DNA of 64,000 nucleotides from an uncultured Nitrospiraceae bacterium (GTDB lineage Bacteria; Nitrospirota; Thermodesulfovibrionia; Thermodesulfovibrionales; Dissulfurispiraceae). Location of the stretch: the NCBI GenBank assembly GCA_963705105.1, contig CAVPIW010000006.1, positions 672,001-736,000 of the forward strand. The letters run 5' to 3'. Positions 1 to 60,201 of this stretch are shown one piece after another; position 1 is the stretch's first letter, and each line of letters begins with the position of its first letter. The notes below the pieces were generated by a model that was not told where the DNA came from, ran no database searches, and worked only from the letters and a program-made list of their open reading frames with translations. Position numbers and translations under genes: made by a program.

Positions 1-1582
1 CTCCCAGTCGTCCGACCAGACCCGTCACCTCTGAGAGGTATTGGCGCGGAACGATCTTCTCCATATCGTCGGCTACAGGAAAGGGTAGGTTCACCGTGGG
101 AAGCGGCTCGGCGCGGAACGAAATCTCGATCTTCGCAGACCTCCTGCGTATATGGCCGGGCAGTGGCGATTTTTCGAGATCCACTTTCGCGACGCCATAA
201 CCTTCGAGCAGTTGGTAGATAGGTCCTTCGTATCGGTACACTCCCTTTTTCACGTCCAGGTGCAGGGCCTCGATGACGCGCTCTGTCAGAACGAATCTGT
301 CCCAGCATCCATCGCCTCTCTGGATGACGAGGGCAATGTCCCAGAAGATCTCACCGTCTCCCCAGGGAAAATCTTTGTCGTGAACACCGGAAAAGAAGAA
401 GAAGTCGTGATGACGCCCTTCCTTCGAGAGCACCCTTCCTCTTAAAACGAGGTTTTCATACTGCGTGTTGTAGAGGAGGCCGGGAAGATACTCCCCCGAG
501 ACTTTTTCGTAGCAGAACTTGACAAAGGCGGAGATGGTGCGGAGTTTCGTGATGGGCGAAAGGGTGTTCGTCACCTCGAACGAAGCGAGAAGGGACGGGA
601 AGTCGAGCATCCGAAATATGAGAACGCCCGATCCGACCGGAGTCCCATCGGTCCCTCTCCCCCTGTAGATCCGGGTGAATAACCGCGTCATGTCATCCAT
701 CACATCGATCCCCGGATCATCGTGAATGACCTTGTAGCCGTAGAGGAAGTAGTCGGCGCCGCTGTTGTCCGCGAACCCGAAGGAGTATGTCATCTGCCTG
801 ATGCCGTGTGCCGCCTCAGGCCTGAACAAAGTGAATACCCCCTCTGTTTGTGAAAGTAAAAGAAAGAAAAAAGGAAAATAAAGAAAAGTGAAATGGAAAA
901 GTAAGAGAAAAAGGAAGAAAAAAAATGGTAGGAATGATAGATAAAAAGGTATATGAGAAGATAGGAAAAAAAAAAGAGAAAAGGAAGGGGAAGGATGGAG
1001 AGAGGATAGGGGTAGATAAATAGATGATAATAAGTAGAATCAGATGCTGGATGAGTTTGAGGTTGAATTTAAGGCTCTGTCGGCGGAAATACCGCGTTAT
1101 CGAGAGGAAGAAGAAGGAAGGGGAATAAAGGAAAAGAGAGAAGAAAAGGAGAAAGAGGAAAAGGAAAAAGGGAAAAAAAGGGAAAGGATAAAAGAAGAAA
1201 GAAGAAAGGAGAGATAAGAGAAAATGGAAAAGGAGGGAGATGATAGGCTAGAGAAGATCAGGTACGATCAACTGCTTCGCTGCTGGCTGCGCAAGAGCCG
1301 AGCTGTCGCGGAAATCGTTTTCAGTTTGAGGGACAAGGGCAGGCTTTGCCCCAGCGGTGCATAGGAGACGGTGCCGGTAATCTTCGCTTTCTGGCCAGAC
1401 AGTTTGATGAAATCGGAGACGCACTCGACCTCGATCTTCACGTCAAAAGAGAGCGTGTTGCCTTGCTCCCGCCCCTTTCTTTCACCCTCTTCAAAGTCCT
1501 CCACCCCTTCGGCCAGATAGCCCGACATCGTCTCTGAGAACCGAAGGCCGACCTTTTTCCCCTTTCCCTCTTCATTGGGCAT
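1..1582 (-). CDS. Uncharacterised protein with an LRFSETMSG...YKVIHDD beta-domain resembling those fused to cholesterol-oxidase/GMC-like proteins; interrupted by a ~486 bp insert (848-1333); runs off the window
   Basis: ORF 1268..1582 reads to ...YAPLGQSLPL. Protein-like sequence resumes at 847 (TEGVFTLFRP...YFLYGYKVIHDDPGIDVMDDMTRLFTRIY...) and continues to base 1. Confidence 0.5.
848..1333. other. Low-complexity purine-rich, nearly C-free insert; probable sequencing or assembly artefact
   Basis: A/G runs with no periodicity that split an otherwise continuous reading frame. Confidence 0.6.
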
Positions 1583-2884: not shown

Positions 2885-3244
2885 AGAACACCTCGCTTTC
2901 TTAGCGGTGAAGGCCTGCCGTCATTCATTGCATCTGCAACGAGCTTCATGTTGATGTTTTGCAACAGATCACGGATTGCGCTCGACCGGATATCCTTCTT
3001 CGTAAAGGGCGGAGGCGGACCCATGAAACCGGCAAAGACGGAGCGGCCGTTCTCTTTTTCGTTCAGCGCCTCCTGCATCTAGTCCGCCGAGTATCCGGCT
3101 GCAAGCAGCGTTGCCGTAATAGCTCCGGCTGACGACCCGAGGATTCTTTCAAAGGCATGCCCCCGCCTCGTGAATTCCGAACAGGCCCCAACAAAAACCA
3201 TCCCCCTTCGCTCCACCGCCTTCAAAGACGAGATCATATTTCAT
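2881..3244 (-). pseudogene. Patatin-like phospholipase N-terminal remnant (copy A)
   Basis: MKYDLVFEGGGAKG and ILGSSAGA (GxSxG); +1 frameshift in a G run after the Gly loop; in-frame TAG at 3079-3081; truncated. Confidence 0.8.
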
Positions 3245-3421
3245 GCTCGCACGCTCCCTTGGCAAGTCGTTGTTACACCACTACTGACTCACCCATCTGC
3301 GACGAGCGCATCGTCGGCCGCTGAGGTAGTCAGGATCAACGCGCCATCCCGCAGTTGAGGCAAATCCGGCATCAACCGACCACACAGTCGCATCAGCAAT
3401 TTGGACGTTCCTGTTGCGTAT

Positions 3422-3718
3422 CTATTCTGCACCCCACCAACTGTCTACATCTTGGACGGCCTCGTACACGTGCCGTAATGTAAGACCCTGATCTATGATC
3501 GCCAGCGCGCGCGCCCCAGTTTCCAGCACATAAAACAAGCCCTCGCGTCCAGCCAGTCGGCTTGTCCAGAAGCCATTGCGCAAGACCTGCAGGGCCTTCG
3601 TGTCTTGCCCTATCTGAGCCATGGCCTGTGCCACAGCGCTTAAGGCAGACGCTTTTGACCACTCATACGAAATCGTCTGGGCCATCATCTCCTCGATGAT
3701 GTCTGGCAGGAACTTCAT
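3422..3718 (-). pseudogene. C-terminal remnant of a TPR-like helical repeat protein
   Basis: KASALSAVAQAMAQIG resembles the helical repeats at the C-termini of STAND-TPR proteins; the N-terminal part is absent. Confidence 0.45.
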
Positions 3719-3763
3719 GTTGACATGCGCAGCAGGTCGCGGGTTGCGCTGTTCTTGATTTCC

Positions 3764-4007
3764 TCATCCGTAAAGGGGCGGACCCATGAACTCGTCAAAG
3801 ACGGACCTGCCGTTCTCCTGCTCGTTCAACGCCGCCTCCATCTCTTCCGCCGAGTATCCGGCGGCAAGCAGCGTCGCCGTAAGAGCACCGGCTGATGTCC
3901 CGAGGATTCGTCGGAAGGTATGGCCCCGCATCGTGAATTCCGAACAGGCTCCGAAAATAACCGATCCCCTTCGCCGCGCCACCTTCAAAGACAAGATCGT
4001 ATTTCAT
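3764..4007 (-). pseudogene. Patatin-like phospholipase N-terminal remnant (copy B)
   Basis: MKYDLVFEGGAAKG, then a frameshift, then ILGTSAGALTATLLAAGYS; paralogous to 2881-3244; truncated after FMGPP. Confidence 0.8.
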
Positions 4008-4249
4008 GCTCTGCTCCTCTATCTCGAGAAGGCAGCCTTCCCTTGAGCTTTTTGTTTCTTTACCAACAATTGATGGGTCCCCGATGGACGAGATTGATTT
4101 GAAGACAGAACAGCGTCAGTTGGAAACCACCTTCCTGACCAACAATCCATCCATTCCGTTTGACATCTTTATACCCTATGTGATGCTCCTATACAACAAT
4201 CATTGAGTCAACCGCCCATAAAGATTTACTGCCTTTTGTTGACATTTAT

Positions 4250-7200
4250 CTATTGCTTAGTATGGCACTTCGTGCCAATTAACTTCTTGGCTGAGTCATA
4301 CTTTGCCGTCCAGCGATTGCAATACTGATAGTCAGGGGAGAGGCCTAATACTGGCTCTTCGTTGATGCCCAGATATCTTTCTTCGATCTTGTTTCCAGCC
4401 GGGTCATACGCAAACTTCGTAATGTGTTGGTATCTGCCAAGAAGTCTTGCAGGCTTACCATCTGTTCCAAAATATCTTTTCTCGATAACTCGCCGCTGGC
4501 TGTCATACTTCTGTGTCATTCGAGCATAACCGATTAACTTATCGTACAAAGCGTTATCGTCTCCATAGCAAGCACGCTCTACTTGATTGCCGGCGGAGTC
4601 GTATTTATAGGTCTGGACCGCACAGCTACTGTTCGGAAGTATCTTCGGTCTGCCATCGCCTCCAAAGTAAGCTTCCTCTACGAGATTGCCGCGAGCATCA
4701 TATTTCATACTCATACGCGCATACCCATACTTCGCTTCCGAGGGCTTACTTTTATCATCAAATGCAGAGATTTCCGTGAGGTTCCCTCGATCATCGTATT
4801 TCTTCAATAAGCGTGAGTATTTCGATGCATTCATCACCGGCTGCCCCTCATCGTCAAAGGTCATTTGTTCCACGAGTTGCCTTCGACTATTAAATTTTTG
4901 TGTACATCGATGATATCTGTTCCCTGTCATAATGGGTTTGTTGTCATCTATTCCAAAATAGGCTATCTCCGTCTGATTGCCGTAACCATCGTACTTGGCT
5001 CTGTAACTCGCAAAACCCCATTCATTATTTTCTCCCTGCCATGGAATAAGAACTGGCTTTCTCTCGGTATTCAGATAGACCTGATAGCTCACTTTGCCTT
5101 TAACATCATATTTCATACGAGTTTCTGCATATCCCAGTACGCCTTGTGTAAGTTTCCCATTCGTATCAAAATAGGATTCGCTTGTCATTTGTCCCAATGG
5201 GTCGTACGTCCGTACGATCTTGGCAAATCCTTCGTTGCTATTAGTCAGTTTTCTATTTACAGCATAGTAGGCTATCTCCCGTTCCTTGCCTTGGGTGTTC
5301 CTTTTGATTTCAACTGTTGCGTATCTTGTTCGCTTATTCATAACTACCTTACCATCTAGCCCTTTGTAGGTAACTTCTGTTTCGTTTCCAAGATGATCAT
5401 ACTTATATCCGATCTTGTGGTATCCATCGCGATGGACAATGGGGCCTTCAGGACCAAAATATGCCTTCTCTATTGGACATCCTTCCTCCTTTAAACATCC
5501 CCGTTCGTCGTAAAGCCTCACTTCCCTATGGAACCCTTCATCCTTGTAGAAAGCCGGTTTGTCTTTAGCATCGTAAAACAATTGTTCAGTAACCCTCCCA
5601 AACGGGTCATACTTCTTGACGAGAAGTGCGTAGCCCTCTTCAGAGGTAACACGACTGTCATCAATGCCATAATATGATATTTCGATGGCTTTGCCCTGGT
5701 CGTTATAGCGTCGTTCGACTGAGTGGTAACCACCTTTTATGAACACTTTCTCAACATAGACCCCAAAGTAGGCGCTCTTCTTCTTGTTTCCGCGTAAGTC
5801 ATACTCGTGAATCGCACGCGCCCATCCGTCCTTATGCAAGACAGGCTCCCCATTAATGCCGAAATATGCCTCCTCAATAGGCTGATTTTGCGGATTAAAC
5901 TCTTTCTTCCAATAAGAATACCCGCCAGCTCTTTCATCTTGCCAAGGAACAAATGCTGGCTTGCTGTTGATATCCAAATATCGCAGATCTATAACATTTC
6001 CATGAGCATCATACTTCCTAGTCCAGCCCGCGTAGCCCTTTCGGTGCGTTACCGGACTTCCGTCTAATCCGAAGTACTTTTGCTCTATCTCATTGCCAAG
6101 AGGGTCATATTCGGATGTGTACCCTGCCACTCCGTCGCTTGATAACGTTTGCTCACCCCTTAAGCCTGTGTATGTGCGTCGCCTTTCGTTTCCTCTCTCA
6201 TCATACTCTGATTTCCAACCAGCATAGCCGTCATGCCCACGCATCGGTTTATCCATGACATTCAAATACACAGTCTCAATCTGGTTCCCGCTCGCATCAT
6301 GTTTTGCGGTCCATCCTGTGTATCCCTCAGTGCTTACGATTCGTTTACCATCGGGACCATAATAGCGAACTCTTACGACGTTGCCATAGTTATCAAATTC
6401 CTGTTCCCATCGCGAATAACCCTTGTTAGAAGCAACGGGCTCTCCCTTGATTCCGAAGTAGGTCGCGCCGATCAATTGTCCATGAACATCATAGCCTCCT
6501 GTCACCTGCGCATATCCTTCCTTGATTAAAGTCCGTGCGCCATCAGCCCCAAAATAGGAACTGTCTTCGAGTTTCCCGGAATCATTGTAACGGTACGTCG
6601 CCCGGGCATAGCCGTCCTTAAACTGCGTTAGTCTCCCTGCAGTATCATAGTAGGATGTTTCCACTAGTTTCTTTAGCCTGACGTCATATTTGCCTTTCCA
6701 GACGGCATAGCCATCCTTATTCGCTGTGAGCTTTTGATCGAGGCCAAAGCAACTCAGTTGGATAGGAAGATTGTCTTCGTCATAAGCCAAAACCAGGCTG
6801 TAGCACCCCCTATCGCCCACCGTAGGCTTATCCTCCATATCCAAGTACATCTCTTTGATGATGTTTCCCTGACCATCTCGTTTCCACTTAACTTTATGAT
6901 AGCCTTTTACGTTGAGTGTTTTTTTCCCATTCTCGTCAAAGTAACCCTCCTCAGTCATATTACCATTGTCGTCATATTCACTTCGTATGACCGAATAACC
7001 GCTCTTTAATGTAACTTTCTCTCCTAATGCATCTAAAGCCTCTTGTTTACGCGGGTTCCCAAAACCAAAGGGATCCAGATCCGTTACCTTTATAGTTGCA
7101 TTGCCGGCCTCGTCGTTCATATATTCATCATTTGGCCCCAATGATGTCTGTTCGAGCAATATTCCTTTCTTGTTGTAGCGCCTTAATTGCCCAAAAGCTT

Positions 7201-9550
7201 TATCGGGCCCACGTATGGCCTGATTGCCTCGATTCCGGTAGCGTCTGTATTCTTCGATGCCTTTCCCGGTATCTCTATATTCAATTTCTACATAACTCTC
7301 AGCGTACTGCTTATCCTTGCGAGGATAACCAGTGTCGTCTACAAAATATCCGGTTCGGACTCTCTCCCGCCCGCCTTCGGGAGGTAAATAGACAAATCCC
7401 CATATTCGCTTCCCTTTGTTATCAAGTGCTGTTTCATAAGAAACACGTTCTTGGGCATCGTAATTGAACTCCCAGGCAACCTCATTGGGTATTCGCTCTT
7501 CCGATGATTCGAGATAAGTGCCGATACGATGAATGGGGGTTAATTTTCCCTTGCTATTGACTGTTTCCATGCGAAGAACGGGACCCCATTTGCCTTTTCT
7601 TATGATTTTGATCGAGACAGGACGATGCTGGACCTGTGCGAGCGTCAATTCACCGACTCCTCTCGGCTCGCCTAAGAAAGGGCGATGCTTGACTTTTGCA
7701 AGAATCAATTCGCCGAACCCCTTCGGCTCACTATGGACCTTAACAAAAGAGCTGAAGTATTCGACATAGTCCCAATGCGTCAGATAGCGATGCAGAAGAA
7801 TGCCTACAATCAGCATCAACACCGCTGTGCCGAAACCCACGGCAAGCCGACGCATCATCTTAAGCTTTTCACGTTGTTCGGCCTCACGCTGCAGTGCCGC
7901 TTCCTTCTCCCGCTGCGCGCGATCAAGAGCTTCGGTGCTTGCCTGAACAAACTCCTTCTCGAGACGCGTGAGGTCTGCCTGCTTTCTTGCCTCTTCCAGC
8001 TGCCATTCCCTAAACAGACCATCCCAGTCTTTGGATTTTCCTTTTGCCTCCCATTGATGCGCCGCCTGAGTAAGGGAGAGGCGATCACGAAGGATGCGGC
8101 GTTTATCATCGATCCACCCTGCTAAGAGCGGCCAGTTGCGGACCAGTGACTCGTGCTTGATCTCGACCACATCGTCGGCACCACTGACGCCGGGCGTGAT
8201 GCGCAAGTAGTCGTTCTTCTTAAGCAGTTCAAGCACTTCCTCCGTGTTCGCCTTGCCAGCCTGCAGCAAGCGGCTTTTGGGCAATGGCTGGCGATAAGCC
8301 TCGAGCATCTCATCGACGCGTACCAACTCGAGGAGTATACGCTTGATCTCTGTCTGGGTTTGCTCTATTTGTGCGAGGTAGAAGGTATCGGCGGCGTTCT
8401 TGAGTGCCTCCAGGGGATCGCCTACTGTTCTGTAAACCTCCCAGGTGATTCGGTTTCGTTTGCGTTTCTCCCAAAGTGCGTGCAAGGTGAATTGTAACAA
8501 CGGAAGCGCCGCGGGCTGGCCGAGCACCTTCTTCACTAGGTCGTCTACAATTCCTGATTGGAACTGTAAGTTTACAAGGGCAGCAGGCTTCTCTACCGCC
8601 GCCGTTAATTCCTCATAACTCATTGGCCGCATCCAGTACCTTGAGGGGCTCAGTTCACGCAACTCATTGATCTTACTATCGAACTCAGCACGCACGGTCA
8701 GAATCACACGGTGGCCCCGAGCGGCATCCAATAGATGAGCGAGGTTTCTTACCAGTGCCTCACGGTCTGCGGGGTCGGACAGCGTGAACACTTCCTCGAA
8801 CTGGTCGATAGTGATCAGTGCAGTCACCGCGTTTTCTTCGCCAAGCATGGCATAAAGATATTTGGGATCCTGCCGAAGGCGTGTCACCTCCTCTGCGACG
8901 ATGCTGTTCGCGGCTGGGTGGGCTTGTCGAACAGCATTTACTAGGTTGTCGAGTACGGAATTACCCGGAACAAATGGCGGAATGACGAACAACTCAGGCA
9001 TCGCGCCTTTCTCCTTGAGCGCCGGCAGAATGCCCCCCATCACAAGGGAAGACTTCCCGCTACCAGACGCGCCAAGCACGACAACAAGCGGCTCTTGACG
9101 AAGTTTCGTCAGCAGCTCCTTTATGTCATCCTCTCGGCCGAAGAAGTTCGCCCGGTCGCGAAAGGCATCGAGGCCGACATAGGGACATAGCTTGTCCTTC
9201 AGGTCCGGCAGTTTCTCGCTGTCGAAGGGGGCCAGGTTTGCAGGCGGTACCACGATCCCCGCCCTAAACAGGCAGGAGACCCAATAGTCCAAAAGCACCT
9301 GGCAATCAGAGCGCTGAAGGATCTCTTCGATATAGACCCCTGTCGCTGCCCCACGTTCCAAGAATTGCCTGAGCTTTGGTTCAAGCCTCGCCAATGCGAC
9401 TGCTTCGCTCTTATCGGCTGCGTCTTTCTTAAGCTCAATACTCAAAGCTTTCATGAAGGCGGCGTGCTCATCCTGCAGCTCGGTCGCACTCTCGAAGGGC
9501 TCCACTCGGCGAAACTGGTCCGGATTTGACATATCTTCCCTTTCTAACAT
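4250..9550 (-). CDS. Membrane-anchored nSTAND1 (NLR-like) NTPase: N-terminal helical domain, STAND, coiled coil, TM helix, YD-like 32-aa repeat ectodomain
   Basis: CPYVGLDAF, FFGRE, Walker A GASGSGKSS, Walker B ITIDQFEE, LPLLQFTL, IKHESLVRNW; TM LAVGFGTAVLMLIVGILL; repeats of YDxxGNxxExxYxGxxGxP...GY. The true start may be 9532. Confidence 0.85.
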   Translation of the reverse strand: MLEREDMSNPDQFRRVEPFESATELQDEHAAFMKALSIELKKDAADKSEAVALARLEPKLRQFLERGAATGVYIEEILQRSDCQVLLDYWVSCLFRAGIVVPPANLAPFDSEKLPDLKDKLCPYVGLDAFRDRANFFGREDDIKELLTKLRQEPLVVVLGASGSGKSSLVMGGILPALKEKGAMPELFVIPPFVPGNSVLDNLVNAVRQAHPAANSIVAEEVTRLRQDPKYLYAMLGEENAVTALITIDQFEEVFTLSDPADREALVRNLAHLLDAARGHRVILTVRAEFDSKINELRELSPSRYWMRPMSYEELTAAVEKPAALVNLQFQSGIVDDLVKKVLGQPAALPLLQFTLHALWEKRKRNRITWEVYRTVGDPLEALKNAADTFYLAQIEQTQTEIKRILLELVRVDEMLEAYRQPLPKSRLLQAGKANTEEVLELLKKNDYLRITPGVSGADDVVEIKHESLVRNWPLLAGWIDDKRRILRDRLSLTQAAHQWEAKGKSKDWDGLFREWQLEEARKQADLTRLEKEFVQASTEALDRAQREKEAALQREAEQREKLKMMRRLAVGFGTAVLMLIVGILLHRYLTHWDYVEYFSSFVKVHSEPKGFGELILAKVKHRPFLGEPRGVGELTLAQVQHRPVSIKIIRKGKWGPVLRMETVNSKGKLTPIHRIGTYLESSEERIPNEVAWEFNYDAQERVSYETALDNKGKRIWGFVYLPPEGGRERVRTGYFVDDTGYPRKDKQYAESYVEIEYRDTGKGIEEYRRYRNRGNQAIRGPDKAFGQLRRYNKKGILLEQTSLGPNDEYMNDEAGNATIKVTDLDPFGFGNPRKQEALDALGEKVTLKSGYSVIRSEYDDNGNMTEEGYFDENGKKTLNVKGYHKVKWKRDGQGNIIKEMYLDMEDKPTVGDRGCYSLVLAYDEDNLPIQLSCFGLDQKLTANKDGYAVWKGKYDVRLKKLVETSYYDTAGRLTQFKDGYARATYRYNDSGKLEDSSYFGADGARTLIKEGYAQVTGGYDVHGQLIGATYFGIKGEPVASNKGYSRWEQEFDNYGNVVRVRYYGPDGKRIVSTEGYTGWTAKHDASGNQIETVYLNVMDKPMRGHDGYAGWKSEYDERGNERRRTYTGLRGEQTLSSDGVAGYTSEYDPLGNEIEQKYFGLDGSPVTHRKGYAGWTRKYDAHGNVIDLRYLDINSKPAFVPWQDERAGGYSYWKKEFNPQNQPIEEAYFGINGEPVLHKDGWARAIHEYDLRGNKKKSAYFGVYVEKVFIKGGYHSVERRYNDQGKAIEISYYGIDDSRVTSEEGYALLVKKYDPFGRVTEQLFYDAKDKPAFYKDEGFHREVRLYDERGCLKEEGCPIEKAYFGPEGPIVHRDGYHKIGYKYDHLGNETEVTYKGLDGKVVMNKRTRYATVEIKRNTQGKEREIAYYAVNRKLTNSNEGFAKIVRTYDPLGQMTSESYFDTNGKLTQGVLGYAETRMKYDVKGKVSYQVYLNTERKPVLIPWQGENNEWGFASYRAKYDGYGNQTEIAYFGIDDNKPIMTGNRYHRCTQKFNSRRQLVEQMTFDDEGQPVMNASKYSRLLKKYDDRGNLTEISAFDDKSKPSEAKYGYARMSMKYDARGNLVEEAYFGGDGRPKILPNSSCAVQTYKYDSAGNQVERACYGDDNALYDKLIGYARMTQKYDSQRRVIEKRYFGTDGKPARLLGRYQHITKFAYDPAGNKIEERYLGINEEPVLGLSPDYQYCNRWTAKYDSAKKLIGTKCHTKQ

Positions 9551-10668
9551 ACTCGCAAGAGAGTCTGTAACGGTTGGTTTAGTTCACTCAGCCGGTTGCA
9601 AAAATCCTTAAGTCTTCTGTCGGCTTCCCGGAACGCGGTACCCACAAACTGCGAGTAGTTCATGAGTAAGATCCTCGCCTGCTTCTTGTCATTATGATCT
9701 AGTGCTTCATCGATAACGATTTCCATCTGACTCAGCTTTTCCTTAAGATTGTCCATGTCTTTGTCTATGAAGGGTGGTATGAGCTCTGAAGCTGCCGTCT
9801 TGGTCAATTCCCACTCACAATCCAGCCCCCCCGGTGAGAGTTTATTTGCAAGCAGGGCGCGCAACCCATCATCTAGCCTCTGTAGTTGGCCATGCTCCCT
9901 GACTCGTCTCTCAAGATCTGCTCGCAACCCGTTCAGTGCATTTATGCTCTGAACAAACTGCACAAGTAAGACATCGTTCTCAGGATGCTCCACGGACAGA
10001 GTTTCCTTTACCGACTCTAATAGCTCCACAAGACGATTCAGCTTCAGCTCCTTTGCAGCGTTAGATATCATAGAATCGAGCCTCGGTGGAATTCTGGAAC
10101 GCAGCTGTTCGAGCCCAGTCTTCACCTTGTCTAAGATAGCAGTATTTTCGGGTGCATTCACAGCCTCTTGGAAGTCCGCTTCAATTAAATCGAGTCGCTT
10201 ACCAAGATCTGGAAAGGGGTCGGTCTCACGTCCCCTGATTGCCTCCTTGATCTGATGAGATTGTTGATCAAATTGAAATTGAAGCGGATCCAGCCAAATT
10301 CTGGTCCTCCTAAGTGCCTGCATTTGGCGAAGGATTTCGAATTCAATAGTATGCAAGGAATCATGAATGGTCTTCAAAAGTTGCATCTCACTGATTCGCT
10401 GTGCAGTATCCCGCATTTCTTGGGAGAGGGTTACCCCGTTGCATGCCGTTGGATCATTGGAAATCCGGTCTGTGAGCTGTTTGAGGCCTATCTTTACAGA
10501 GTCAAGTAAACCCGGAAAGTTGATAACTATCTTGTCGCCTCTCACCTCATCCCCATGGACGAGTTTGTCACGTCCTACAGAATCGCCGCCGACGCTGACA
10601 TTGTCCTTGAAGTACGCGCCACCGGCCTTTTGATCAGCCCCTGATTCCTTTCCGTCTTCAGTCGTCAT
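9544..10668 (-). CDS. Putative adaptor: N-terminal amyloid-like motif plus an all-alpha helical domain
   Basis: N-terminal GGAYFKDNVSVGGDSVGRDKLVHGDEVRGDKI is shared with the upstream caspase; the rest is Leu/Glu-rich and helical; its stop abuts the STAND start. Confidence 0.65.
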   Translation of the reverse strand: MTTEDGKESGADQKAGGAYFKDNVSVGGDSVGRDKLVHGDEVRGDKIVINFPGLLDSVKIGLKQLTDRISNDPTACNGVTLSQEMRDTAQRISEMQLLKTIHDSLHTIEFEILRQMQALRRTRIWLDPLQFQFDQQSHQIKEAIRGRETDPFPDLGKRLDLIEADFQEAVNAPENTAILDKVKTGLEQLRSRIPPRLDSMISNAAKELKLNRLVELLESVKETLSVEHPENDVLLVQFVQSINALNGLRADLERRVREHGQLQRLDDGLRALLANKLSPGGLDCEWELTKTAASELIPPFIDKDMDNLKEKLSQMEIVIDEALDHNDKKQARILLMNYSQFVGTAFREADRRLKDFCNRLSELNQPLQTLLRVC

Positions 10669-10752: not shown

Positions 10753-12162
10753 CTATTTCCCCTGAATCTTATCCAGCACGAATTTGGTGACCGGCCCGGC
10801 GATTCCACCCAGAATCGGGGAGGCAAAAATACTCGCAATACCACTCACTGCTTCTGGAACTAGGGCAATCAGTCCATCGATCAGCTTGCCCATCTTGTTA
10901 TCATCAGCTGCCTTCCCTTTTGCTACTTCCTGTTTTAGCTCCTCTACCTTCTTCAGAGCCTCTGTCTGATTGGCGGCGGGCACTTCCCGAATGGATGACA
11001 TCAACGGTTCGAACAATCTTTGAAGGTCCTGATCAGATATCCCTGTGGTGACGGTGGACCGGGCGCCCCGGCCGATGGCGATCCCCTGACCAGAAATGTC
11101 CCCCACCGTTATCCTGTCGCCTAGAATTTTATCGCCTCTCACCTCGTCTCCATGGACGACCTTGTCACGGCCTACAAAATCGCCGCCGACGCTGACAGCC
11201 CCCCCGATGTACGCACCGCCGCCAGTATCAATAGTGGTCACAGTACCTGCTTTTTCACCCTCAAGAGGTGCGAGCGGATCGGGTGCTGCCAAACCCTTCG
11301 CTATACCTTTGCCGCCCAGGAGCAATGCGATCGGGAAGTTCCCGCTTACCTGGTAATCCGGCTCCTGCGGCTGACCCCAGTCAGCTTTCACGCTTTCCGG
11401 TACGTTGCGCCACACATAACTCATCACGTCGGAGACTAACACCTCCTTGGCACCCTCTTCGGGCTGCGCATGGCCAGTCAGCGCTTCGATCAAGTGATAG
11501 GTAAAGATGCTCATCTTCCCGTCCTTGCGCATATAAGAAGGTTGTTCTCCCTGTGAGGAACTCAGCACAGCCCGACCTGCTCCTTTGGTCAGCACTTCCA
11601 AACCCTTAGCGCCTTCCTTTGGAGTTACTCCCTTGGCTGCTGACATGAATATTTGCGTTGGAATGGCAGATCGCTTGTAAGAAGCAATGCCTTTAATTCC
11701 CATGCCGCCGGAATGACAACAGTCAAGTACTACGAAGAGACGCTGTGGTTTAAGAGCATTAATGGCATCAGCGAAGTCCTCTGCCCTGAGAGCACTTGAT
11801 TTGAATGCCTCCTCGTCCACGTCGTACGGAATGAGAAAATACTGAGGCTGCTGGCCGTCGTCTCGGTCTCCATGTCCTGAGTAAAACACGATAGCCGTGG
11901 CATTTCCGCTTGCATCATCGTTAATCTTCTTCTTTAGTCGGGTTAGCCCTCCAAGGATATTCGCGCGAGTCGAATTCGACCCCAGGATGACTTCGACGTT
12001 TTTCTCAAGATAGGCACACCGCTCCGGATGGACAAGTACATTTTGCAGAGCCGTAACATCTTTTTCCACATCAGGAAGAGCCCATGTGGGATTGCTGTTT
12101 TCGTTAACTCCAATCAACAACGCATATCCACTAATGAATTGCTTTGCCATTTCCTCCTCCAC
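10753..12162 (-). CDS. Caspase-like peptidase C14 with a Gly-rich amyloid-like linker and a C-terminal helical domain
   Basis: ALLIGVN, FYSGHG (catalytic His), VVLDCCHSGG (catalytic Cys), SIFTYHLIEAL. Confidence 0.9.
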   Translation of the reverse strand: MEEEMAKQFISGYALLIGVNENSNPTWALPDVEKDVTALQNVLVHPERCAYLEKNVEVILGSNSTRANILGGLTRLKKKINDDASGNATAIVFYSGHGDRDDGQQPQYFLIPYDVDEEAFKSSALRAEDFADAINALKPQRLFVVLDCCHSGGMGIKGIASYKRSAIPTQIFMSAAKGVTPKEGAKGLEVLTKGAGRAVLSSSQGEQPSYMRKDGKMSIFTYHLIEALTGHAQPEEGAKEVLVSDVMSYVWRNVPESVKADWGQPQEPDYQVSGNFPIALLLGGKGIAKGLAAPDPLAPLEGEKAGTVTTIDTGGGAYIGGAVSVGGDFVGRDKVVHGDEVRGDKILGDRITVGDISGQGIAIGRGARSTVTTGISDQDLQRLFEPLMSSIREVPAANQTEALKKVEELKQEVAKGKAADDNKMGKLIDGLIALVPEAVSGIASIFASPILGGIAGPVTKFVLDKIQGK

Positions 12163-12281: not shown

Positions 12282-13079
12282 TCAGAAGCCGGAGACCTTG
12301 ACAAAGGCGCTCTCACTGGCGAGCTGCCCCACTCTATCTGACTTTTTCTTCTTGATCCCTTTAATGGCCGCTGATCCTGTCTCCAGCGGCTCGTATGTCG
12401 TGTAGCGCCCCTGATCATAGAAAAGACGCACTGCCTGAAAGCCGAACACAAGCGGAATGGAGGACTCGTATGTCACCTTGGAGGTTACCGAGGATGCGCC
12501 TGAGGTTTTCACGTTCCCGCCCACGATGCCTTGAATCTCAGGGATGCTGACATCGAGCGCCGCTCCATTTGATTTCTTCGCTTCAACAGTGAACTTCGTC
12601 CCCTTGATGGTCGCCGTGGTGACATACAGTTCATCCGCTTCCAACAAGTCCGCGACGTAGCGGGAGAAAGGGCTCACATCAGCGTCTGCCAGGTACTGGT
12701 CAAGTTTGATAATCTCAACGCTGTCCTCGAACACATCCTGAAATTCGAACGCGGCTGTCTTTGCCTGCTCATACTTCATATCGAGCCCGAGTTTTGAGCC
12801 GCCCATCGCACCGATTATGCTGCCGAGGATCGACAAACCAACTCCTATGCTCAGGTCACCTGTGCGCTGACCCGAGATATCGGCAGTACGGGCATTCTGG
12901 ATGGCCGGCGGGGAAATATTCTTGCCGGCCACGAGGAGTGTTGTCAGATCGCCCAGGCGAGTGAGGTCCTTCCCGTTGCGGGATAACACTTGAAGCGGCT
13001 TGACATCTGCCTTGGGCAAACGAATCACATTATAGCCAAAAGACTTGAGATAGGTGAGGAATGGATCGTTGCAGAACAT
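12282..13079 (-). CDS. Bacterial gasdermin (bGSDM)
   Basis: 265 aa. N-terminus MFCNDPFLTYLKSFGYNVIRLP has the conserved Cys3; also LYVTT..IK...FTV, TY....PLVFGFQA and a short C-terminal peptide ending VKVSGF. Strong recalled similarity to the Vitiosangium and Runella gasdermins; flanked by caspases. Confidence 0.93.
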   Translation of the reverse strand: MFCNDPFLTYLKSFGYNVIRLPKADVKPLQVLSRNGKDLTRLGDLTTLLVAGKNISPPAIQNARTADISGQRTGDLSIGVGLSILGSIIGAMGGSKLGLDMKYEQAKTAAFEFQDVFEDSVEIIKLDQYLADADVSPFSRYVADLLEADELYVTTATIKGTKFTVEAKKSNGAALDVSIPEIQGIVGGNVKTSGASSVTSKVTYESSIPLVFGFQAVRLFYDQGRYTTYEPLETGSAAIKGIKKKKSDRVGQLASESAFVKVSGF

Positions 13080-13247: not shown

Positions 13248-14105
13248 CTACACAAAGCGGGCCTTCCTCTTGGTCGCCTCGCACTCCAGCTGAGGTATCT
13301 GGCTGTAATGACCGGCTTGAAGTCCTTTTCTGACCTGCTCGAGCACCTTTTTTCGGGAAAGCTTGTTTTTGCTGTCATTCATCACCTTGCAGAAGTGGTA
13401 GGTGAAGGCCCCGTGCCAGCCCCCAGCGATGTATGCATCAGCGCTGGTCTGATCAGACCGGCAGCCTGCCCAGAGGATGTGATGGATAATGCCTTTTTCG
13501 AGCATCGATTCATACAGTCCGCGGGATCGACGCCCCTCGACCATCTTGAAGGCTTCGTAGGAAGGGGGCGGCATCCATCGCGGTTTGCGGTCAGGCAGGA
13601 AATCAAGAGCTTTGATGCCCGTGCCGCTGTGGCAGGTATCAAGATAGACTTCCAGTAGGACGTTCGCCGGCAACTGGACGAAGAGATCATGCAATTCGTC
13701 ATCGACAATGATGTATTTCGGGTCCCAGATACTCCCGGCCGACGCCAGGTCATGGGGGCAGACGGCCTCGTCTGCTCTATCCGGCTCGTCCCCGCTCGTA
13801 TCCGGCACCTGGGTCCCGTGGCTGGACAGGCTGAAGACCAGGTAACTGTATTTCCCCTTCTTGGCCCCGTCTACCATTTCCTTGAGATTCTTCATGATGT
13901 TCGCTTTCGTGGCCTGGGTGTCTGTCAACTTGACGATATCTCCAGGGCCAAAACCGAGCCACTTCTTGAGCAGGGCTTCCATGTCATTGGCGTCATTCAC
14001 ACAACCCTGTAACGCGCTGCCGGGATAGTTTTTGAAGTTGTTGATCCCCACACACAGAGCTCTCTTTGCCATGATTTTCTCCTCCTTGTTCGTTTTCATG
14101 CTCAT
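13248..14105 (-). CDS. Metacaspase-like peptidase C14
   Basis: RALCVGIN, LQGCVNDA, SLSSHGTQVPD (His), YLDTCHSGT (Cys), DQTSADA, GAFTY. Confidence 0.92.
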   Translation of the reverse strand: MSMKTNKEEKIMAKRALCVGINNFKNYPGSALQGCVNDANDMEALLKKWLGFGPGDIVKLTDTQATKANIMKNLKEMVDGAKKGKYSYLVFSLSSHGTQVPDTSGDEPDRADEAVCPHDLASAGSIWDPKYIIVDDELHDLFVQLPANVLLEVYLDTCHSGTGIKALDFLPDRKPRWMPPPSYEAFKMVEGRRSRGLYESMLEKGIIHHILWAGCRSDQTSADAYIAGGWHGAFTYHFCKVMNDSKNKLSRKKVLEQVRKGLQAGHYSQIPQLECEATKRKARFV

Positions 14106-14120
14106 GACCTCCTTCTGAGA

Positions 14121-16217
14121 TCATTCCGTTACAATCCATATGGGGTTTGTTACGCACCGGAAAAGCCCCTCGCCCGTCTTGGGGTTTATGCGTGAAGCGG
14201 CCTCCATCCGCAGGTAGCAGGGACTCTCTGTCCATGCTGAAAATGTGTGTACGATGCTGCCATGGAAGCCGCTTTCTTTGTTCCCGAGAGTCGGGAGACC
14301 GATTTCATCGGTTATGTCTGTTTCGGCATCAGCAGTGCCCCGAAAGAGATGTATTCTTTCAATGGGCCCGAACTCCTCATTACTTTGCCATTCAATATGC
14401 AGGTCGAGACTTTCGCCGGGTGGAATAGTGAAAGTGTCGCCAAATCGGTACTCCTTCTCATCTCCTTTCTTGCGGAGGGAGAAAAACACAATGGGGCCAT
14501 CGCTCAGAAGGGCCCTGCCGGCTTTCAGAGCGCCGAGAAGATCAGCCTCAGTCAGCGCCTCGCCAGCCTCTTTCGGCAGATACGCCAGGGTGCGCACCTT
14601 GCCAAAGGCGTTGTCGTTGAGAGTGTGGATGAAGAACACAGGATGGGGGCGGAAGGCACAGTTGAAGTCCATATGGGCGTCTGAGCCGGCGAGGACAAAG
14701 TACTTCTTCAGTGTCTTTATCTGCGTATATTCCCGCAATGACGGCCGGAGAAAGTGCTCAACCCAGTGCTCACGGATTCCCGTGTCAAGATCATGCGACC
14801 AGGACTTCTTCTTGTCAGTCTTTTTGAACATCTCATAGGGATCGAGGTAGGGGCGGTCGATCGAGGAGTCGGTAGTACACTCCATGAGGATCTTTTCATT
14901 GAAGATCTGAAGACCACAGAACAGGTCTCTGTATCGGGGATTCATGACGACGGCATAATCCTCTTCGTGCCAGATGTACCCGTTTGAGGAGGGGTGAGCG
15001 GCATACAGGAATCCCTGTCGGGGCTGCGGACTCAGTAGTATCCGTTCAAAAACCTCTGCCATCGTCAGGGTTCCGAATCCCGCGATGTGCGTGTCCTCGA
15101 TGAAGGGATTATCGTAAGAAAGGACATGCAGGCCGGCAAAGTATTTCCTCACGGTGACCTCTTCGGCGGCGACCAAGAGGACATCGGGATATCGTATGTT
15201 TGTATCAGCCACTGCCTTCTTGTAAGAAGACCAGCGGTTTCCCTGCTCTTCTTCCTCGTCGGTCTTCGTGTGGCCAAGGCAATAGGAATGGTCGGTCACT
15301 GTCACCCAGGCAAGACCCGTTGCTCTGGCTACCTCGGCACTCATCGGCAGGGGGCTGCCGTACTCGTAAGGGTTGTCGGTAAAGTCAGAGTGGAAATGCG
15401 TGTCACCATACAGCCATCCGTCAACCCGGGGTAGATCGTATTCAGAGACAAGAGTGCGGAGGACGATCTGCTTACTCCTGTCGATTCCGAGAAAGCCTTC
15501 AAATGTGATGATGACGCAATAATGGAGGTAACGGGCCTTTCCATACGCGGGATGGGTCCAGTCGACGGGCGTGAAACATTTCCTGTCGAGATGAATGATC
15601 CTGTACCAGGGATCGGTGTTGACCGTCTCGTAATCCTCGCCTTCGTCGAACCTCAGGGGAGCAGGCATGCCGTTTTCCTCGACCTCTGCACCTTTGGTGT
15701 CAAGCACCTTCACTATACTGCCGGGAGGAAGCGACTGCGGCGTGCCTCCCGATGACGACGTCCAATGATTGAAGGCGATGGATCGGATTCTGATCTTTAC
15801 GGGACCAACGTCTTTAAGGTATACAATCACAGGGACATAAGGGCAGCTCTTTTCAAGCCGGTAGGGCGCGTCGACCACGAGATCCATGGCAGGCGTATTC
15901 GGCTGTTTTGCGGCTGCTCTCTTTTCAAATTTGTGTTCTACTTTGTCCTTGTCCAGCTCTATTGTTTGGCCCTTGACGATAGGACGTCCGGTGTCGGCAT
16001 CTATGACCTTGAGCGTATAGGTGCCCCTTGGAATGCCTTCAATCTCGACGTAATATGTGCCATTATCTTTCTTTAGCTTGGTGTAGTCCTCCAGGGCGGT
16101 TCGAATCACTTTCCTGGATCTCTCTCGCTTGAGCTCGATGATCACCGGCTGCCAAAAGCGACCCATTTCATGGTCACCGATGTCGAAAGCAACCCGTATT
16201 GTTCCTCTATCTCCCAT
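14121..16217 (-). CDS. PHP-fold (CehA/McbA-like) metallohydrolase with N-terminal beta domains
   Basis: GDTHFHS, VTDHS, YAAHP, AGSDAH and TNPIW motifs; RBS AGGAGG. Confidence 0.75.
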   Translation of the reverse strand: MGDRGTIRVAFDIGDHEMGRFWQPVIIELKRERSRKVIRTALEDYTKLKKDNGTYYVEIEGIPRGTYTLKVIDADTGRPIVKGQTIELDKDKVEHKFEKRAAAKQPNTPAMDLVVDAPYRLEKSCPYVPVIVYLKDVGPVKIRIRSIAFNHWTSSSGGTPQSLPPGSIVKVLDTKGAEVEENGMPAPLRFDEGEDYETVNTDPWYRIIHLDRKCFTPVDWTHPAYGKARYLHYCVIITFEGFLGIDRSKQIVLRTLVSEYDLPRVDGWLYGDTHFHSDFTDNPYEYGSPLPMSAEVARATGLAWVTVTDHSYCLGHTKTDEEEEQGNRWSSYKKAVADTNIRYPDVLLVAAEEVTVRKYFAGLHVLSYDNPFIEDTHIAGFGTLTMAEVFERILLSPQPRQGFLYAAHPSSNGYIWHEEDYAVVMNPRYRDLFCGLQIFNEKILMECTTDSSIDRPYLDPYEMFKKTDKKKSWSHDLDTGIREHWVEHFLRPSLREYTQIKTLKKYFVLAGSDAHMDFNCAFRPHPVFFIHTLNDNAFGKVRTLAYLPKEAGEALTEADLLGALKAGRALLSDGPIVFFSLRKKGDEKEYRFGDTFTIPPGESLDLHIEWQSNEEFGPIERIHLFRGTADAETDITDEIGLPTLGNKESGFHGSIVHTFSAWTESPCYLRMEAASRINPKTGEGLFRCVTNPIWIVTE

Positions 16218-54266: not shown

Positions 54267-54284
54267 AAGACGGGGAAGTCTCTC

Positions 54285-57137: not shown

Positions 57138-57300
57138 AGGCGACGATACGCCTCGTCAGGTTTGTCTTTCAGGATCCACTCTTTGTGTGATCGATCATTG
57201 GCTTGAAAGGTTGTCTTCAGTGAAGGTTAAGGTGTCGCCGCATCAAGGTTTTCGGCGCATACACCCCGCCTTTCCGGAGACCCTATTGCAACGATAAAGT
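57089..57300 (-). mobile_element. MITE-like element, copy 9 (reverse; overlaps the treY 3' end)
   Basis: GAAAGGCGGGGCGAAGCG...CCCCGCCTTTCCGG...TTGCAACGATAAAGT. Confidence 0.85.
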
Positions 57301-57405
57301 GTATAAACCACTTGAGCGGTACCGTCCCGGCGGTTTTTGACGGGTATGCCGGAACAATGCGTATCCGCCGGGCAGAGCATTTCTATGAAATTGTGGGGGG
57401 GTAAG

Positions 57406-58077
57406 ATGTCTGCAGAAGCCAAGCATGAACCATTTTTCGTCAAAGACTGTGCGCTGGTGACCATAGCGACCGGGAAGAAGGCCCAAAACCTGAAAGAACT
57501 GAGAGAGCATTTGCTGAACATCCATCTGGGGAGCATATACCATCATTTTTGGGGCGGGCTCCTGAGGCCCAGATTCGATGAGCCTGAATACAACAACGAT
57601 TTTGCCGAATGGGTTCATCGTGCCCTTCAAGACAATATCCTTGCGGAACGATTATCTGTTGTCAACCCCGATCCTTTAACAAATCTGGAATCCTTGCGCC
57701 AGGAGCTGCTCGAAGTCATCGAACAGAGGTTGGATGAGATCGAAACGGTTACCTGGGCCAAGCCCGACAGGCAGTTTCATTTTGTCCGCTCTCAAATGGT
57801 GGTTTTCGATACCCAAAGCAAAATTGAAGAGCCGGAGGAATTGGTGGAGGCTGTACCCAAAATGTCCGTGGGAAGCATATTTTATCATTTTATTGATGCG
57901 AGACGCCGCAGCCCTGAAATGATGGACGATTTCCGCACCTGGTTAAGGTCTTGCGGTGATGATGAGCTTTGCTCACACGTGGCTGCAGTGGATCCCTACT
58001 TTGAATCCCTCGTGGAATTGCGCAAGCAACTGGCGGACCTGTTCGCAAAATATTTTATTCGGGGAGTGACGGGATGA
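57406..58077 (+). CDS. DUF5752-like protein (TreT-associated)
   Basis: SIYHHF, NDFAEW, SIFYHF duplicated motifs. Confidence 0.75.
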   Translation: MSAEAKHEPFFVKDCALVTIATGKKAQNLKELREHLLNIHLGSIYHHFWGGLLRPRFDEPEYNNDFAEWVHRALQDNILAERLSVVNPDPLTNLESLRQELLEVIEQRLDEIETVTWAKPDRQFHFVRSQMVVFDTQSKIEEPEELVEAVPKMSVGSIFYHFIDARRRSPEMMDDFRTWLRSCGDDELCSHVAAVDPYFESLVELRKQLADLFAKYFIRGVTG

Positions 58078-59327: not shown

Positions 59328-59334
59328 CGGAGGA

Positions 59335-59620
59335 CGTGCATCAATCCACAGACGCTTGAATCGGGGATGCAAAGACCGGGCATCCAAAGAAATAAGCCCC
59401 GTTAGAGACCGACGGTCTCCAACGGGGCGCTGGTCTCGGCGTTTTCTCTTACGGGTCCAAAAAAGAATTCCTGACATGTCAGGAGACTCCTGACATATCA
59501 GAATCCGGCGCCTTTCACAGCATCATTCCCCCATCGCAGCTTTCGCTGAAGTTTCCAATGATTCCAAAGTCTTAGAGAACCCTTTCTTTCAACGCAGCTC
59601 TTAGCACGGTTTATGCTCTT
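59335..59620 (+). promoter_or_regulatory. Duplicated activator 3' end, tandem UAS palindromes and degenerate sigma54 promoter
   Basis: Paralogous to 47925-48185; TCCTGACATGTCAGGA at 59469-59484; TAGCACGGTTTATGCT at 59602-59617. Confidence 0.75.
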
Positions 59621-59662
59621 AAACAGTATGTGGCAAACGTTCAAAGAGAAAGGAGACACGTC

Positions 59663-59743
59663 ATGGACACCATACTTATAGTCATTATTTTGATTTTGAT
59701 CTTCGGCGGCGGCGGGTTCTACTGGACGAGACGGGGCCGTTAG
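59663..59743 (+). CDS. 26-aa membrane peptide (not in the ORF track)
   Basis: AAGGAG RBS; MDTILIVIILILIFGGGGFYWTRRGR*. Confidence 0.6.
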   Translation: MDTILIVIILILIFGGGGFYWTRRGR

Positions 59744-59816
59744 GCGCCCAGACGAAGTTAATGCGGCTGACGCGCCAGGGCCGTCAGTCAGATCGAGATC
59801 CTAAAGGAGGAATACG

Positions 59817-59996
59817 ATGAAATCCAGCATGAAAGACAAAGTGGAAGGCACGCTTCACGAAGCAAAGGGAAAGATCAAGGAAATGGCCGGGGACCTGACC
59901 GATAATCCAAAGTTGGAAGCCGAAGGCGCCGCAGAAAAGATAGCCGGCAAAGTTCAGAAAAAGATGGGCCAGGTCAAGAAGGTGCTGGGGAAGTAG
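59817..59996 (+). CDS. CsbD family stress protein (not in the ORF track)
   Basis: AAGGAGG RBS; MKSSMKDKVEGTLHEAKGKIKEMAGDLTDNPKLEAEG. Confidence 0.85.
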   Translation: MKSSMKDKVEGTLHEAKGKIKEMAGDLTDNPKLEAEGAAEKIAGKVQKKMGQVKKVLGK

Positions 59997-60201
59997 CGGC
60001 GAGGGACGACGTGAAATAAGGGCCCAACCGCATAAAATGGGGACAGACCGATTCCCCGAGAAACGGACATCTGCATGGGTCCTGCCGGTTATGAAACGCA
60101 GGCAACAACGTCCCGAAGTGCAGGCAGTACAGACGGCTGTTCAAAAATGCAGTTTGCAACATTTGTCGGTAATGCGGCCTACAGCCGCCAAGGAGGCAAG
60201 G

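Follow-up and report, generated by a model that had tools for sequence, protein, structure and literature searches.

Is it possible to switch a bacterial NLR through a membrane, and by what means, when its sensor is unable to touch the NTPase? To our knowledge, the bacterial STAND/NLR defences tested so far respond to cytoplasmic signals, and periplasmic sensing is so far a prediction. The question is raised here by the last gene of a cluster in the window (the whole stretch of 64,000 nucleotides that we analysed), whose product has, in our estimate, a somewhat better than even chance of being a receptor built of a STAND ATPase, one predicted transmembrane (TM) helix and about 30 periplasmic YD repeats, and likely switching on the neighbouring caspases and gasdermin. 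Because a predicted periplasmic sensor is paired with an output that can be read cleanly, as cleavage of the gasdermin or as permeability of the membrane, two open questions become testable. The genes concerned, and a short motif shared by two of them, are:

14121..16217, minus strand: CehA/McbA-like metallohydrolase (NCBIfam NF038032, E 1e-17, below cut-off), with caspase 1 following 15 nt downstream; a putative member of the system only
13248..14105, minus strand: caspase 1, Peptidase C14, 285 aa, no fused domain (PF00656, E 8e-30); His-Cys dyad intact (SHG, DTCHSG)
12282..13079, minus strand: bacterial gasdermin, 265 aa (PADLOC bGSDM, E 2e-87; NF051890 over cut-off)
10753..12162, minus strand: caspase 2, C14 (PF00656, E 3e-18), dyad intact; G-rich C-terminal beta-motif plus helical tail
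11125..11223 (approximate limits), minus strand: motif copy in caspase 2, 26/33 residues identical to the adaptor copy (by eye)
10528..10626 (approximate limits), minus strand: motif copy at the adaptor N-terminus
9544..10668, minus strand: all-helical adaptor, 374 aa; homologues have TIR, CHAT or EAD10 in place of the motif
4250-9550, minus strand: receptor ORF, 1766 aa, last gene of the caspase–gasdermin–caspase–adaptor–STAND cluster

The receptor consists of a helical N-domain, nSTAND1, a coiled-coil-like linker, one predicted TM helix and an ectodomain of 1179 aa (aa 588-1766). Homologues align from the ATG at 9532, which is therefore the probable start codon. Its parts are:

9197..9532, minus strand: STAND N-terminal domain, aa 7-118, defined from the alignment; co-occurs with the adaptor
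8030..9184, minus strand: nSTAND1 NTPase, aa 123-507 (PF20703, E 3e-88), Walker A/B intact
7847..8029, minus strand: charged helical, coiled-coil-like linker, aa 508-568, ending in a basic patch
7790..7846, minus strand: predicted single TM helix, aa 569-587, N-in/C-out (Kyte–Doolittle 2.31; six K/R before, one after)
7193..7789, minus strand: membrane-proximal ectodomain, aa 588-786, irregular hairpins with family-specific motifs
4250..7192, minus strand: about 30 regular YD-like beta-hairpin repeats of 32 aa each, aa 787-1766; Cys pairs at 916/934, 1643/1661 and 1744/1762

The NTPase is identified well beyond the threshold, with a PF20703 score of 297.5 bits against a curated cut-off of 27.1 and with Walker A (aa 160) and Walker B (aa 246) both intact, while the linker (about aa 508-568) is rich in E/R/K/A/Q and was judged coiled-coil-like by eye from the sequence. 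Together with the one strongly hydrophobic 19-mer, this bears out the order of STAND, coiled coil and single TM helix proposed in the sequence-only reading. A search for a CARD-like domain gave no Pfam match for the N-domain or for the tail of caspase 2, which has 844 relatives, with a TCAD2 match in 9/75 of those scanned.

The adaptor has no Pfam match, gives generic helical-bundle matches only among PDB sequences, no Foldseek fold match at E <= 0.001, and nothing in the ESM Atlas. Gene order connects it to the N-domain: it lies directly upstream in 20/22 loci with this domain and in 0/58 control loci without it. Its N-terminal slot, scanned in 18 cases, holds TIR in ten, CHAT in three, EAD10 in three and nothing recognised in two; in one locus (L013) a CHAT-adaptor gene is followed by an N-domain/STAND/TM/YD gene in frameshifted pieces. 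In our genome the core pattern of the motif occurs twice, in the adaptor and in caspase 2 only.

The gasdermin aligns with PDB 7n51 over aa 2-230 (E 4e-45), has Cys3 at the palmitoylation position, and carries a C-terminal tail of about 35 aa. The gasdermin and the caspases, unmentioned in the sequence-only reading, decide the likely output of the receptor: since the receptor gene closes a cluster that also encodes two caspases and a gasdermin, a signal from beyond the cytoplasm would probably lead the cell to kill itself. The link to defence made in that reading gains support from this cluster and from the metagenome loci of the YD-STAND family, where a TIR gene lies directly upstream in 7/7 loci that have upstream DNA (nine loci, two truncated), though the seven are not independent, as three of the nine (L085, L087, L092) look like close kin. 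The SxWCxxE motif is found in 5/7 of these TIR-preceded loci. We consider it likely that the receptor belongs to a death or defence pathway, and fairly probable, with less confidence, that its output goes through the neighbouring gasdermin.

The second of these statements depends on how the cluster is divided. The link between receptor and gasdermin was seen in one genome. The five genes lie on the same strand with all catalytic motifs intact, the whole set is absent from the relatives searched, and the tested Lysobacter system, as described in the accessible text of PMC10312443, likewise combines a gasdermin, two proteases and a STAND protein. These points argue against a division in which receptor, adaptor and caspase 2 form a module of their own with other substrates, and caspase 1 and gasdermin a separate two-gene system in a defence island, with the topology as we predict it. 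We regard this division as unlikely, at perhaps one chance in a handful or slightly more, and it has several observations in its favour: no second locus links the receptor family to a gasdermin (none was found in 80 STAND loci, 40 relatives, or the plasmids searched, nor in 396 genomes of another phylum, a search run without a positive control), the gaps flanking the gasdermin (168 and 119 nt) exceed the adaptor–STAND junction, GC3 is 0.66-0.71 in gasdermin and caspase 1 versus 0.52-0.54 in caspase 2 and adaptor, and a protease stands beside most bGSDMs anyway (43/50 in the accessible text of 10.1101/2021.06.07.447441). A promoter and terminator scan returned fewer sites than in shuffles.

The TM call is based on hydropathy, charge and homologues. 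The receptor has one strongly hydrophobic 19-mer (Kyte–Doolittle 2.31, against 1.44 for the next best and 0.69 for the highest in the ectodomain), with six K/R in the preceding 15 residues versus one after. A hydrophobic 19-mer stands just before the membrane-proximal domain in 58/63 homologues having that domain, and in all 58 the K/R count is higher before than after (mean 6.0 vs 1.4). Other members of the family point the same way: signal-peptide-like leaders were seen by eye at the N-terminus of four homologues (P0018, P0030, P0034, P0075), two (P0010, P0019) have a C-terminal TAXI/NMT1 solute-binding domain and no additional TM, and PDZ is present in twelve hits. The host genome has Omp85-family genes, and a periplasm is therefore present. 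Sensing outside the cytoplasm, as suggested earlier, is thus supported, and we judge from sequence that the ectodomain is very likely periplasmic, so that the predicted helix would separate the NTPase from the repeat sensor, in place of the same-side layout of Avs and CARD-NLR.

The helix as such is not what sets this protein apart, contrary to the weight first put on the membrane anchor. A TM-like helix follows STAND in 113/120 sequences related via the N-terminal part and in 42/45 control nSTAND1 loci, and TM-bearing relatives are listed by Kaur et al. 2021; we therefore rejected the TM as a peculiarity of the receptor gene. Being near-universal in nSTAND1 proteins, WD40 and TPR types included, the helix could be a structural feature of the family, and since many of these proteins carry WD40/TPR sensors known from cytosolic STANDs, it might be a packed or membrane-dipping nSTAND1 helix, with the repeats forming a cytoplasmic sensor as in Avs. 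We think this improbable, about one chance in ten, because the same helix and charge pattern also precedes the repeats in STAND-less kinase and TIR proteins, because of the signal-peptide, TAXI and PDZ versions, and because Cys pairs are enriched: an 18-residue spacing occurs for 152/1139 Cys in the family versus 37.6 by random placement (maximum 60, 200 trials), and Cys stands at repeat positions 4 and 22 together in 7/803 units versus 1.1 expected. Paired Cys make up only 13% of the family's Cys and a pair is present in 45/120 proteins; the host has no DsbB or VKOR match, which favours a helix that does not cross and weakens the disulfide argument for this host. The receptor's ectodomain has nine Cys, in keeping with the several noted earlier, but the two placed in the last 20 aa or so, C1744 and C1762, take the 23rd and the 5th place counted back from the C-terminus.

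Assuming the predicted crossing, the part outside amounts to 1179 aa, close to the approximately 1170 first estimated; the range originally singled out, 4250..7850, spans the TM helix and the ectodomain. Autocorrelation peaks at lag 32 (+0.05, with the best lag of 50 shuffles at <= -0.73), repeat HMMs detect 25-26 units, and in the AlphaFold model (mean pLDDT 87, pTM 0.69) we counted, from the DSSP list, 30 regular two-strand units at aa 787-1763 and about four irregular ones on the membrane side, so that the roughly 30 YD-like repeats of about 32 aa were confirmed. In the membrane-proximal part, 20 aa are duplicated in tandem (about aa 609-648). YD repeat profiles match (PF05593 31.2 vs 22; TIGR01643 24.6 vs 15.8), no PDB sequence comes below E 0.1, and the top Foldseek matches are all RHS, teneurin or Tc shells, with a TM-score of at most 0.42; the alignment with RhsA has Z 10.1 over 416 residues at 4.4 Å. 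Given this low global similarity, a closed cavity is only putative. The best ESM Atlas match of the ectodomain, 0.89, is a lead only.

The RHS-associated core carries a DPxG autoproteolysis motif. The receptor matches neither the RHS-core motif nor the NCBIfam core and has no DPxG-type pattern (6/120 family members have a loose match), and in the model the last strand ends 3 aa short of the C-terminus, leaving no room for a C-terminal toxin domain. The absence of core and toxin tip was thus correctly read from the start, and we rejected an RHS toxin identity.

With its predicted type II topology and YD shell the protein resembles teneurins, and the ectodomain might then serve self/kin recognition or adhesion, with death upon mismatch or contact loss. 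Repeat number varies from 11 to 48 across four classes of homologues, in 12/120 homologues units reach 80% identity or more, which points to recent expansion of the repeats, and an ectodomain swap is observed (below). An inner-membrane anchor in a diderm would keep the domain in the periplasm, with neighbours out of reach; an FN-plug and an NHL propeller are absent (hairpin repeats throughout in the model, no such Pfam match), and the receptor's own units are old (mean identity 0.29, maximum 0.47). Kin recognition thus seems to us still less probable than a helix that does not cross. With units 29% identical on average, we also rejected ongoing repeat hypervariation in this gene.

The ectodomain has 142 homologues, and among the 119 listed the N-terminal partners are nSTAND1 in 49, AAA_35 in four, kinase in 23, TIR only in 26 and others in 17; 102/119 are fused to signalling domains and 53 to STAND. 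In one protein the ectodomain is 68-71% identical to the receptor's and the STAND only 27%. Judged from such sequences the ectodomain is a swappable module, and the natural swap suggests that receptor specificity is modular. Profile searches found no ectodomain in 40 relatives and 400 genomes of the host's phylum, and no new genome in three other-phylum samples (401, 401 and 301 genomes, the first two without a positive control) except the centre genome, G411. A single-protein scan of metagenomes gave no match, viral contigs and plasmids held no relatives, and no RNA run was listed as a holder among sequencing runs; one DNA run gave contigs of low depth that hardly differ from the window and show zero variants in the ectodomain, but it is no independent support, being possibly the source sample. 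A degenerate RHS toxin container joined to STAND by chance, with no sensing, would suit the RHS-like fold and the rare, patchy distribution (the 400 genomes of the phylum and the roughly 1100 of the three samples yielded no new one) but can be set aside as very improbable, given 142 homologues mostly fused to signalling domains, a conserved membrane-proximal domain, an intact ORF, and the absence of core, cleavage motif and tip.

We envisage the following sequence of events. The YD repeats probably fold into a periplasmic spiral beta-sheet, which would bind a foreign protein reaching that compartment. Our favoured candidate is a protein that a phage ejects or carries in its tail, closely followed by effectors of predators or competitors and by damage to the envelope; a phage trigger seems conceivable to us, at rather less than an even chance. 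Binding would, as the topology suggests, cluster the receptor. As the membrane keeps the sensor off the NTPase, activation would proceed via clustering or via movement of TM and linker, not by release of cis auto-inhibition. STAND NTPases act by nucleotide exchange and oligomerisation, and with its motifs intact the receptor would presumably do the same. The N-domain would then recruit the helical adaptor, as their gene pairing suggests, and the N-terminal beta-motif of the adaptor may gather caspase 2 via the matching motif in its tail. Finally, caspase 2, directly or through caspase 1, would cut off the C-terminal peptide of the gasdermin, leading to pores (for the bGSDM pore mechanism see 10.1101/2021.06.07.447441, accessible text) and death.

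Beyond this locus we tentatively propose, at under even chance, a bacterial family of envelope pattern receptors, in which a YD-repeat shell is connected via one TM to STAND, TIR or Ser/Thr kinase, and one member of which would in this genome drive a complete trans-membrane inflammasome of STAND, adaptor, caspase and gasdermin pore. If true, these layouts would parallel the Toll-like and receptor-kinase types of animals and plants, a periplasmic ligand could open a gasdermin pore before or without an invader in the cytoplasm, and YD shells in bacteria would have a role as receptors rather than toxin containers, parallel to teneurins. An answer on trans-membrane switching would extend to the large nSTAND1+TM family.

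An nSTAND1+TM+RHS architecture is already known from a 2021 table, where it is undiscussed. Figure 2 source data 1 of Kaur et al. 2021 (PMC8195603) lists nSTAND1+TM+RHS+RHS+PDZ (WP_129958652.1, Paraburkholderia, after a TIR+TIR gene) and TIR+nSTAND1+RHS+RHS (WP_048709317.1, Microvirga massiliensis); our homologue P0035 matches the Microvirga row in species and length. These rows share STAND clade, TM and repeat type with the receptor, and the upstream TIR partner is as in the metagenome loci. These are two table rows only; the word "RHS" is absent from the main text and "gasdermin" from the 12 supplementary files searched. Unlike them, our locus encodes a STAND of another subfamily, together with its own dedicated adaptor, a gasdermin and a pair of caspases. 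A literature search, with most subscription papers and bioRxiv supplements outside its range (the supplements could list gasdermin–STAND neighbours), found no publication on this architecture.

The Lysobacter gasdermin CARD-NLR system (PMC10312443, accessible text) likewise has a gasdermin, two proteases and a STAND in one operon, with the receptor-to-protease-to-pore logic that we propose here, but uses trypsin-like proteases and CARD coupling, whereas our locus has C14 caspases, an adaptor of its own and a short beta-motif common to adaptor and caspase 2; the word "Transmembrane" is absent from that text. Bacterial gasdermin–caspase systems (10.1101/2021.06.07.447441; PDB 7n51) also have the gasdermin fold, N-terminal Cys, short inhibitory tail and adjoining C14 protease, but the sensors described there, either repeats or NACHT, are joined to the protease itself, and the accessible text describes no membrane-spanning receptor. 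STAND sensing of periplasmic or membrane signals was proposed earlier from predicted TMs (10.1101/2023.09.22.558884, 10.1101/2022.07.19.500537); as far as the accessible parts of both papers go, those sensors are C-type-lectin/FGE or multi-TM, not YD shells, and come without gasdermin.

The shared motif may be the TCAD1 of "CASPASE+TCAD1+TCAD2" in the table of Kaur et al. (PMC8195603, accessible files). In BASS amyloid motifs (10.1101/2020.01.06.895854, accessible text), too, a short G/V-rich motif occurs in the C-terminal part of the effector and at the N-terminus of the next gene's product, but in our locus it is on the adaptor, not on the NLR. The YD beta-hairpin spiral, finally, is common to the receptor, RHS/YD toxins, teneurins and bacterial teneurin-like proteins (PMC13018210, accessible text), and the type II single-pass topology, predicted here by hydropathy and charge, is common to the receptor and metazoan teneurins. 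The receptor differs from both RHS proteins and teneurins in its 32-aa period, in lacking core, toxin, FN-plug and NHL, and in carrying a signalling domain inside.

The STAND-YD receptor gene is the last of a same-strand run encoding caspase 1, a gasdermin, caspase 2, a 374-aa protein (the "adaptor") and the receptor; a metallohydrolase gene ahead of the run may be co-transcribed with caspase 1:

14121-16217, minus strand: CehA/McbA-like metallohydrolase, 698 aa, ending 15 nt upstream of caspase 1
13248-14105, minus strand: caspase 1 (Pfam; His and Cys kept)
12282-13079, minus strand: gasdermin (PADLOC, E 2e-87; PDB 7n51, E 4e-45; Cys3 kept)
10753-12162, minus strand: caspase 2 (Pfam; His and Cys kept)
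9544-10668, minus strand: adaptor, directly before the receptor gene
4250-9550, minus strand: receptor ORF, 1766 aa, probable start at 9532

The sequence-only reading described a STAND module, a TM helix and about 30 repeats lacking an RHS core or tip; Pfam, hydropathy and AlphaFold agree, and we regard the feature as genuine and well described. nSTAND1 spans aa 123-507 (Pfam, E 3e-88), followed by the sole outstanding hydrophobic 19-mer (aa 569-587, KD 2.31), with six K/R before it and one after. The 1179 aa beyond have a period of 32, well above shuffles, and a weak RHS-repeat match that is nonetheless over the Pfam cut-off. The ectodomain model (30-row alignment; pLDDT 87, pTM 0.69) is nearly all-beta, with, by our count, 30 regular two-strand units plus some four irregular units towards the membrane. 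Foldseek places RHS, teneurin and Tc shells on top, with strong E-values and TM-scores of at most 0.42, and RhsA aligns over 416 residues (VIA; 4.4 Å, Z 10.1); on this model, the repeats are YD-like. Neither an RHS core nor a toxin tip was found in the protein by profiles, the familiar RHS-core motif or the model. A 20-aa tandem duplication lies right past the TM (~aa 609-648, window ~7600-7725, minus strand); it is missing from 15 of 16 other aligned rows, and in homologue P0011 an insertion of comparable size occupies the same place.

The topology had been thought to set the protein apart, but a TM-like segment follows STAND in 113/120 sequences related by the N-terminal part, most of which are of the WD40 or TPR type, and in 42 of the 45 full-length nSTAND1 proteins used as controls; judged from sequence, the TM does not distinguish this protein. 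Different signalling proteins share the ectodomain as a module: searching with aa 590-1100 retrieved 142 proteins, and the 120 matches listed comprise the query and 49 nSTAND1, 4 AAA_35, 23 Ser/Thr kinase, 26 TIR-only and 17 other proteins by Pfam label. The same repeats also occur behind polytopic membrane domains that belong to no known family (P0063, P0085, P0092, P0098, P0099, P0110, P0119 and others).

By the positive-inside rule, K/R around a TM indicate its orientation; TAXI proteins are periplasmic. Among the matches listed, a TM-like segment directly precedes the membrane-proximal domain (aa 588-786) in 58 of the 63 proteins having that domain, with more K/R before than after in 58/58; four homologues start with signal-peptide-like leaders, two have a TAXI solute-binding domain at the C-terminus, and PDZ is present in 12. 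Three Cys pairs in the query are spaced by 18, a spacing seen family-wide among these matches for 152 of 1139 Cys (37.6 at random), and Cys occupy repeat positions 4 and 22 together in 7 of 803 units (1.1 expected). Since the host genome has no match to DsbB or VKOR, with three to Thioredoxin_4, disulfides there are uncertain. Together with the host's Omp85 genes, these features make a periplasmic ectodomain likely, as the earlier reading had proposed.

The ectodomain is 68-71% identical to that of P0006, while their STANDs are 27% identical; conversely, the query STAND is 62-69% identical to P0125, P0126, P0127, P0132 and P0146, which carry WD40, TPR or unrelated sensors, or a YD sensor at 30-35% identity. 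In a tree of 43 hand-chosen STAND rows (25 YD-bearing, 18 other), which by itself is compatible with a single origin of the YD label, the query groups with P0125 (100/99), and the P0006 clade, itself well supported, does not include it. The ectodomain has a GC3 of 0.47, the N-terminal half one of 0.63. Given the identity contrast, the tree and GC3, the sensor was most likely acquired from another receptor lineage. Near-identical repeat runs in L013:10787-14365, P0125 and P0146 are a sign of recent expansion in close relatives. An unannotated ~1200-aa C-terminal region occurs on the same STAND subfamily in P0127, P0165 (weak FHIPEP match, E 7e-4), P0173, P0180, P0182, P0203 and P0214.

Searching with aa 1-330 gave at least 80 genome loci from 30 of 64 database parts. 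The N-domain (aa 7-118) is present in 22/80, and an adaptor homologue lies directly upstream in 20/22 of these versus 0/58 without it. The N-terminal slot of 18 of the 20 adaptors, as scanned, holds TIR (10), CHAT (3), EAD10 (3) or nothing recognised (2). Because of this pairing and the differing slots, the helical part is the constant partner of the subfamily, and the effector it carries varies. Locus L013 again pairs a CHAT-adaptor with N-domain/STAND/TM/YD, in frameshifted pieces. The adaptor model is all-helical, and no fold match was found for it. The ectodomain is also encoded at nine metagenome loci, two without upstream DNA; a TIR gene directly precedes STAND in 7/7 of the others, a count to be read knowing that three of the nine appear closely related. 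At L093:12782-13225, after a SIR2-TIR and STAND-YD pair, a small hydrophobic protein without Pfam or NCBIfam match is a possible membrane effector.

At the query locus the slot is a motif matching caspase 2: 33 G/V-rich residues, 26 identical by eye, are common to the caspase 2 tail and the adaptor N-terminus, and the genome has no copy of the core beyond these two. The tail has 844 relatives; 75 scanned carry C14, CHAT, TIR, Macro or EAD domains, with a TCAD2 match in nine. Apart from the query, no nSTAND1 in the genome passes the cut-off. Three tandem caspase genes on contig C13 of genome G000 (~53300-60400) are 34-35% identical to caspase 1, two scoring equally. Directly after the receptor gene lies the start of what its motif suggests is a patatin-like gene, in two broken copies each changing frame (~2900-4010, minus strand); locus L001 has an intact patatin immediately 3' of STAND. 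Between the fragments, a 98-aa ORF (3422-3718, minus strand; no Pfam match) resembles a helical-repeat protein tail. ORFs 2-829 (no Pfam match) and 1268-1582, minus strand, adjoin an amidohydrolase (1805-2884) and seem similar to a domain known from fusions with cholesterol-oxidase-like enzymes.

STAND modules act as switches. From what is observed (domains, motifs, gene order, co-occurrence, swap) and predicted (TM, topology, fold), we slightly favour a chain in which the ectodomain would bind a periplasmic ligand, receptors would cluster across the membrane, STAND would oligomerise, the adaptor and then caspase would be recruited, and gasdermin would be cleaved. The main rival, which we consider rather improbable, makes receptor and gasdermin separate neighbours: gasdermin is absent from 80/80 STAND loci, and no second gasdermin locus appeared in 40 relatives (where the ectodomain is likewise not found), 396 other-phylum genomes (searched without positive control) or plasmids. 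For the signalling chain, the trigger may, at a guess by analogy, be a phage ejection protein.

In the literature searched we found no predicted trans-membrane receptor that adjoins a full caspase-gasdermin pathway and has a YD shell common to STAND, TIR and kinase receptors; the arrangement is directly testable. The Figure 2 source data of Kaur et al. 2021 (PMC8195603) list nSTAND1+TM 461 times and hold two RHS rows, nSTAND1+TM+RHS+RHS+PDZ after a TIR+TIR gene and TIR+nSTAND1+RHS+RHS; 'RHS' does not occur in the main text. Given these rows the nSTAND1+TM+RHS architecture counts as already tabulated, with no discussion or test of it found within the literature searched. Parts and even architecture are thus on record, and the query represents a variation on STAND and gasdermin systems already known.
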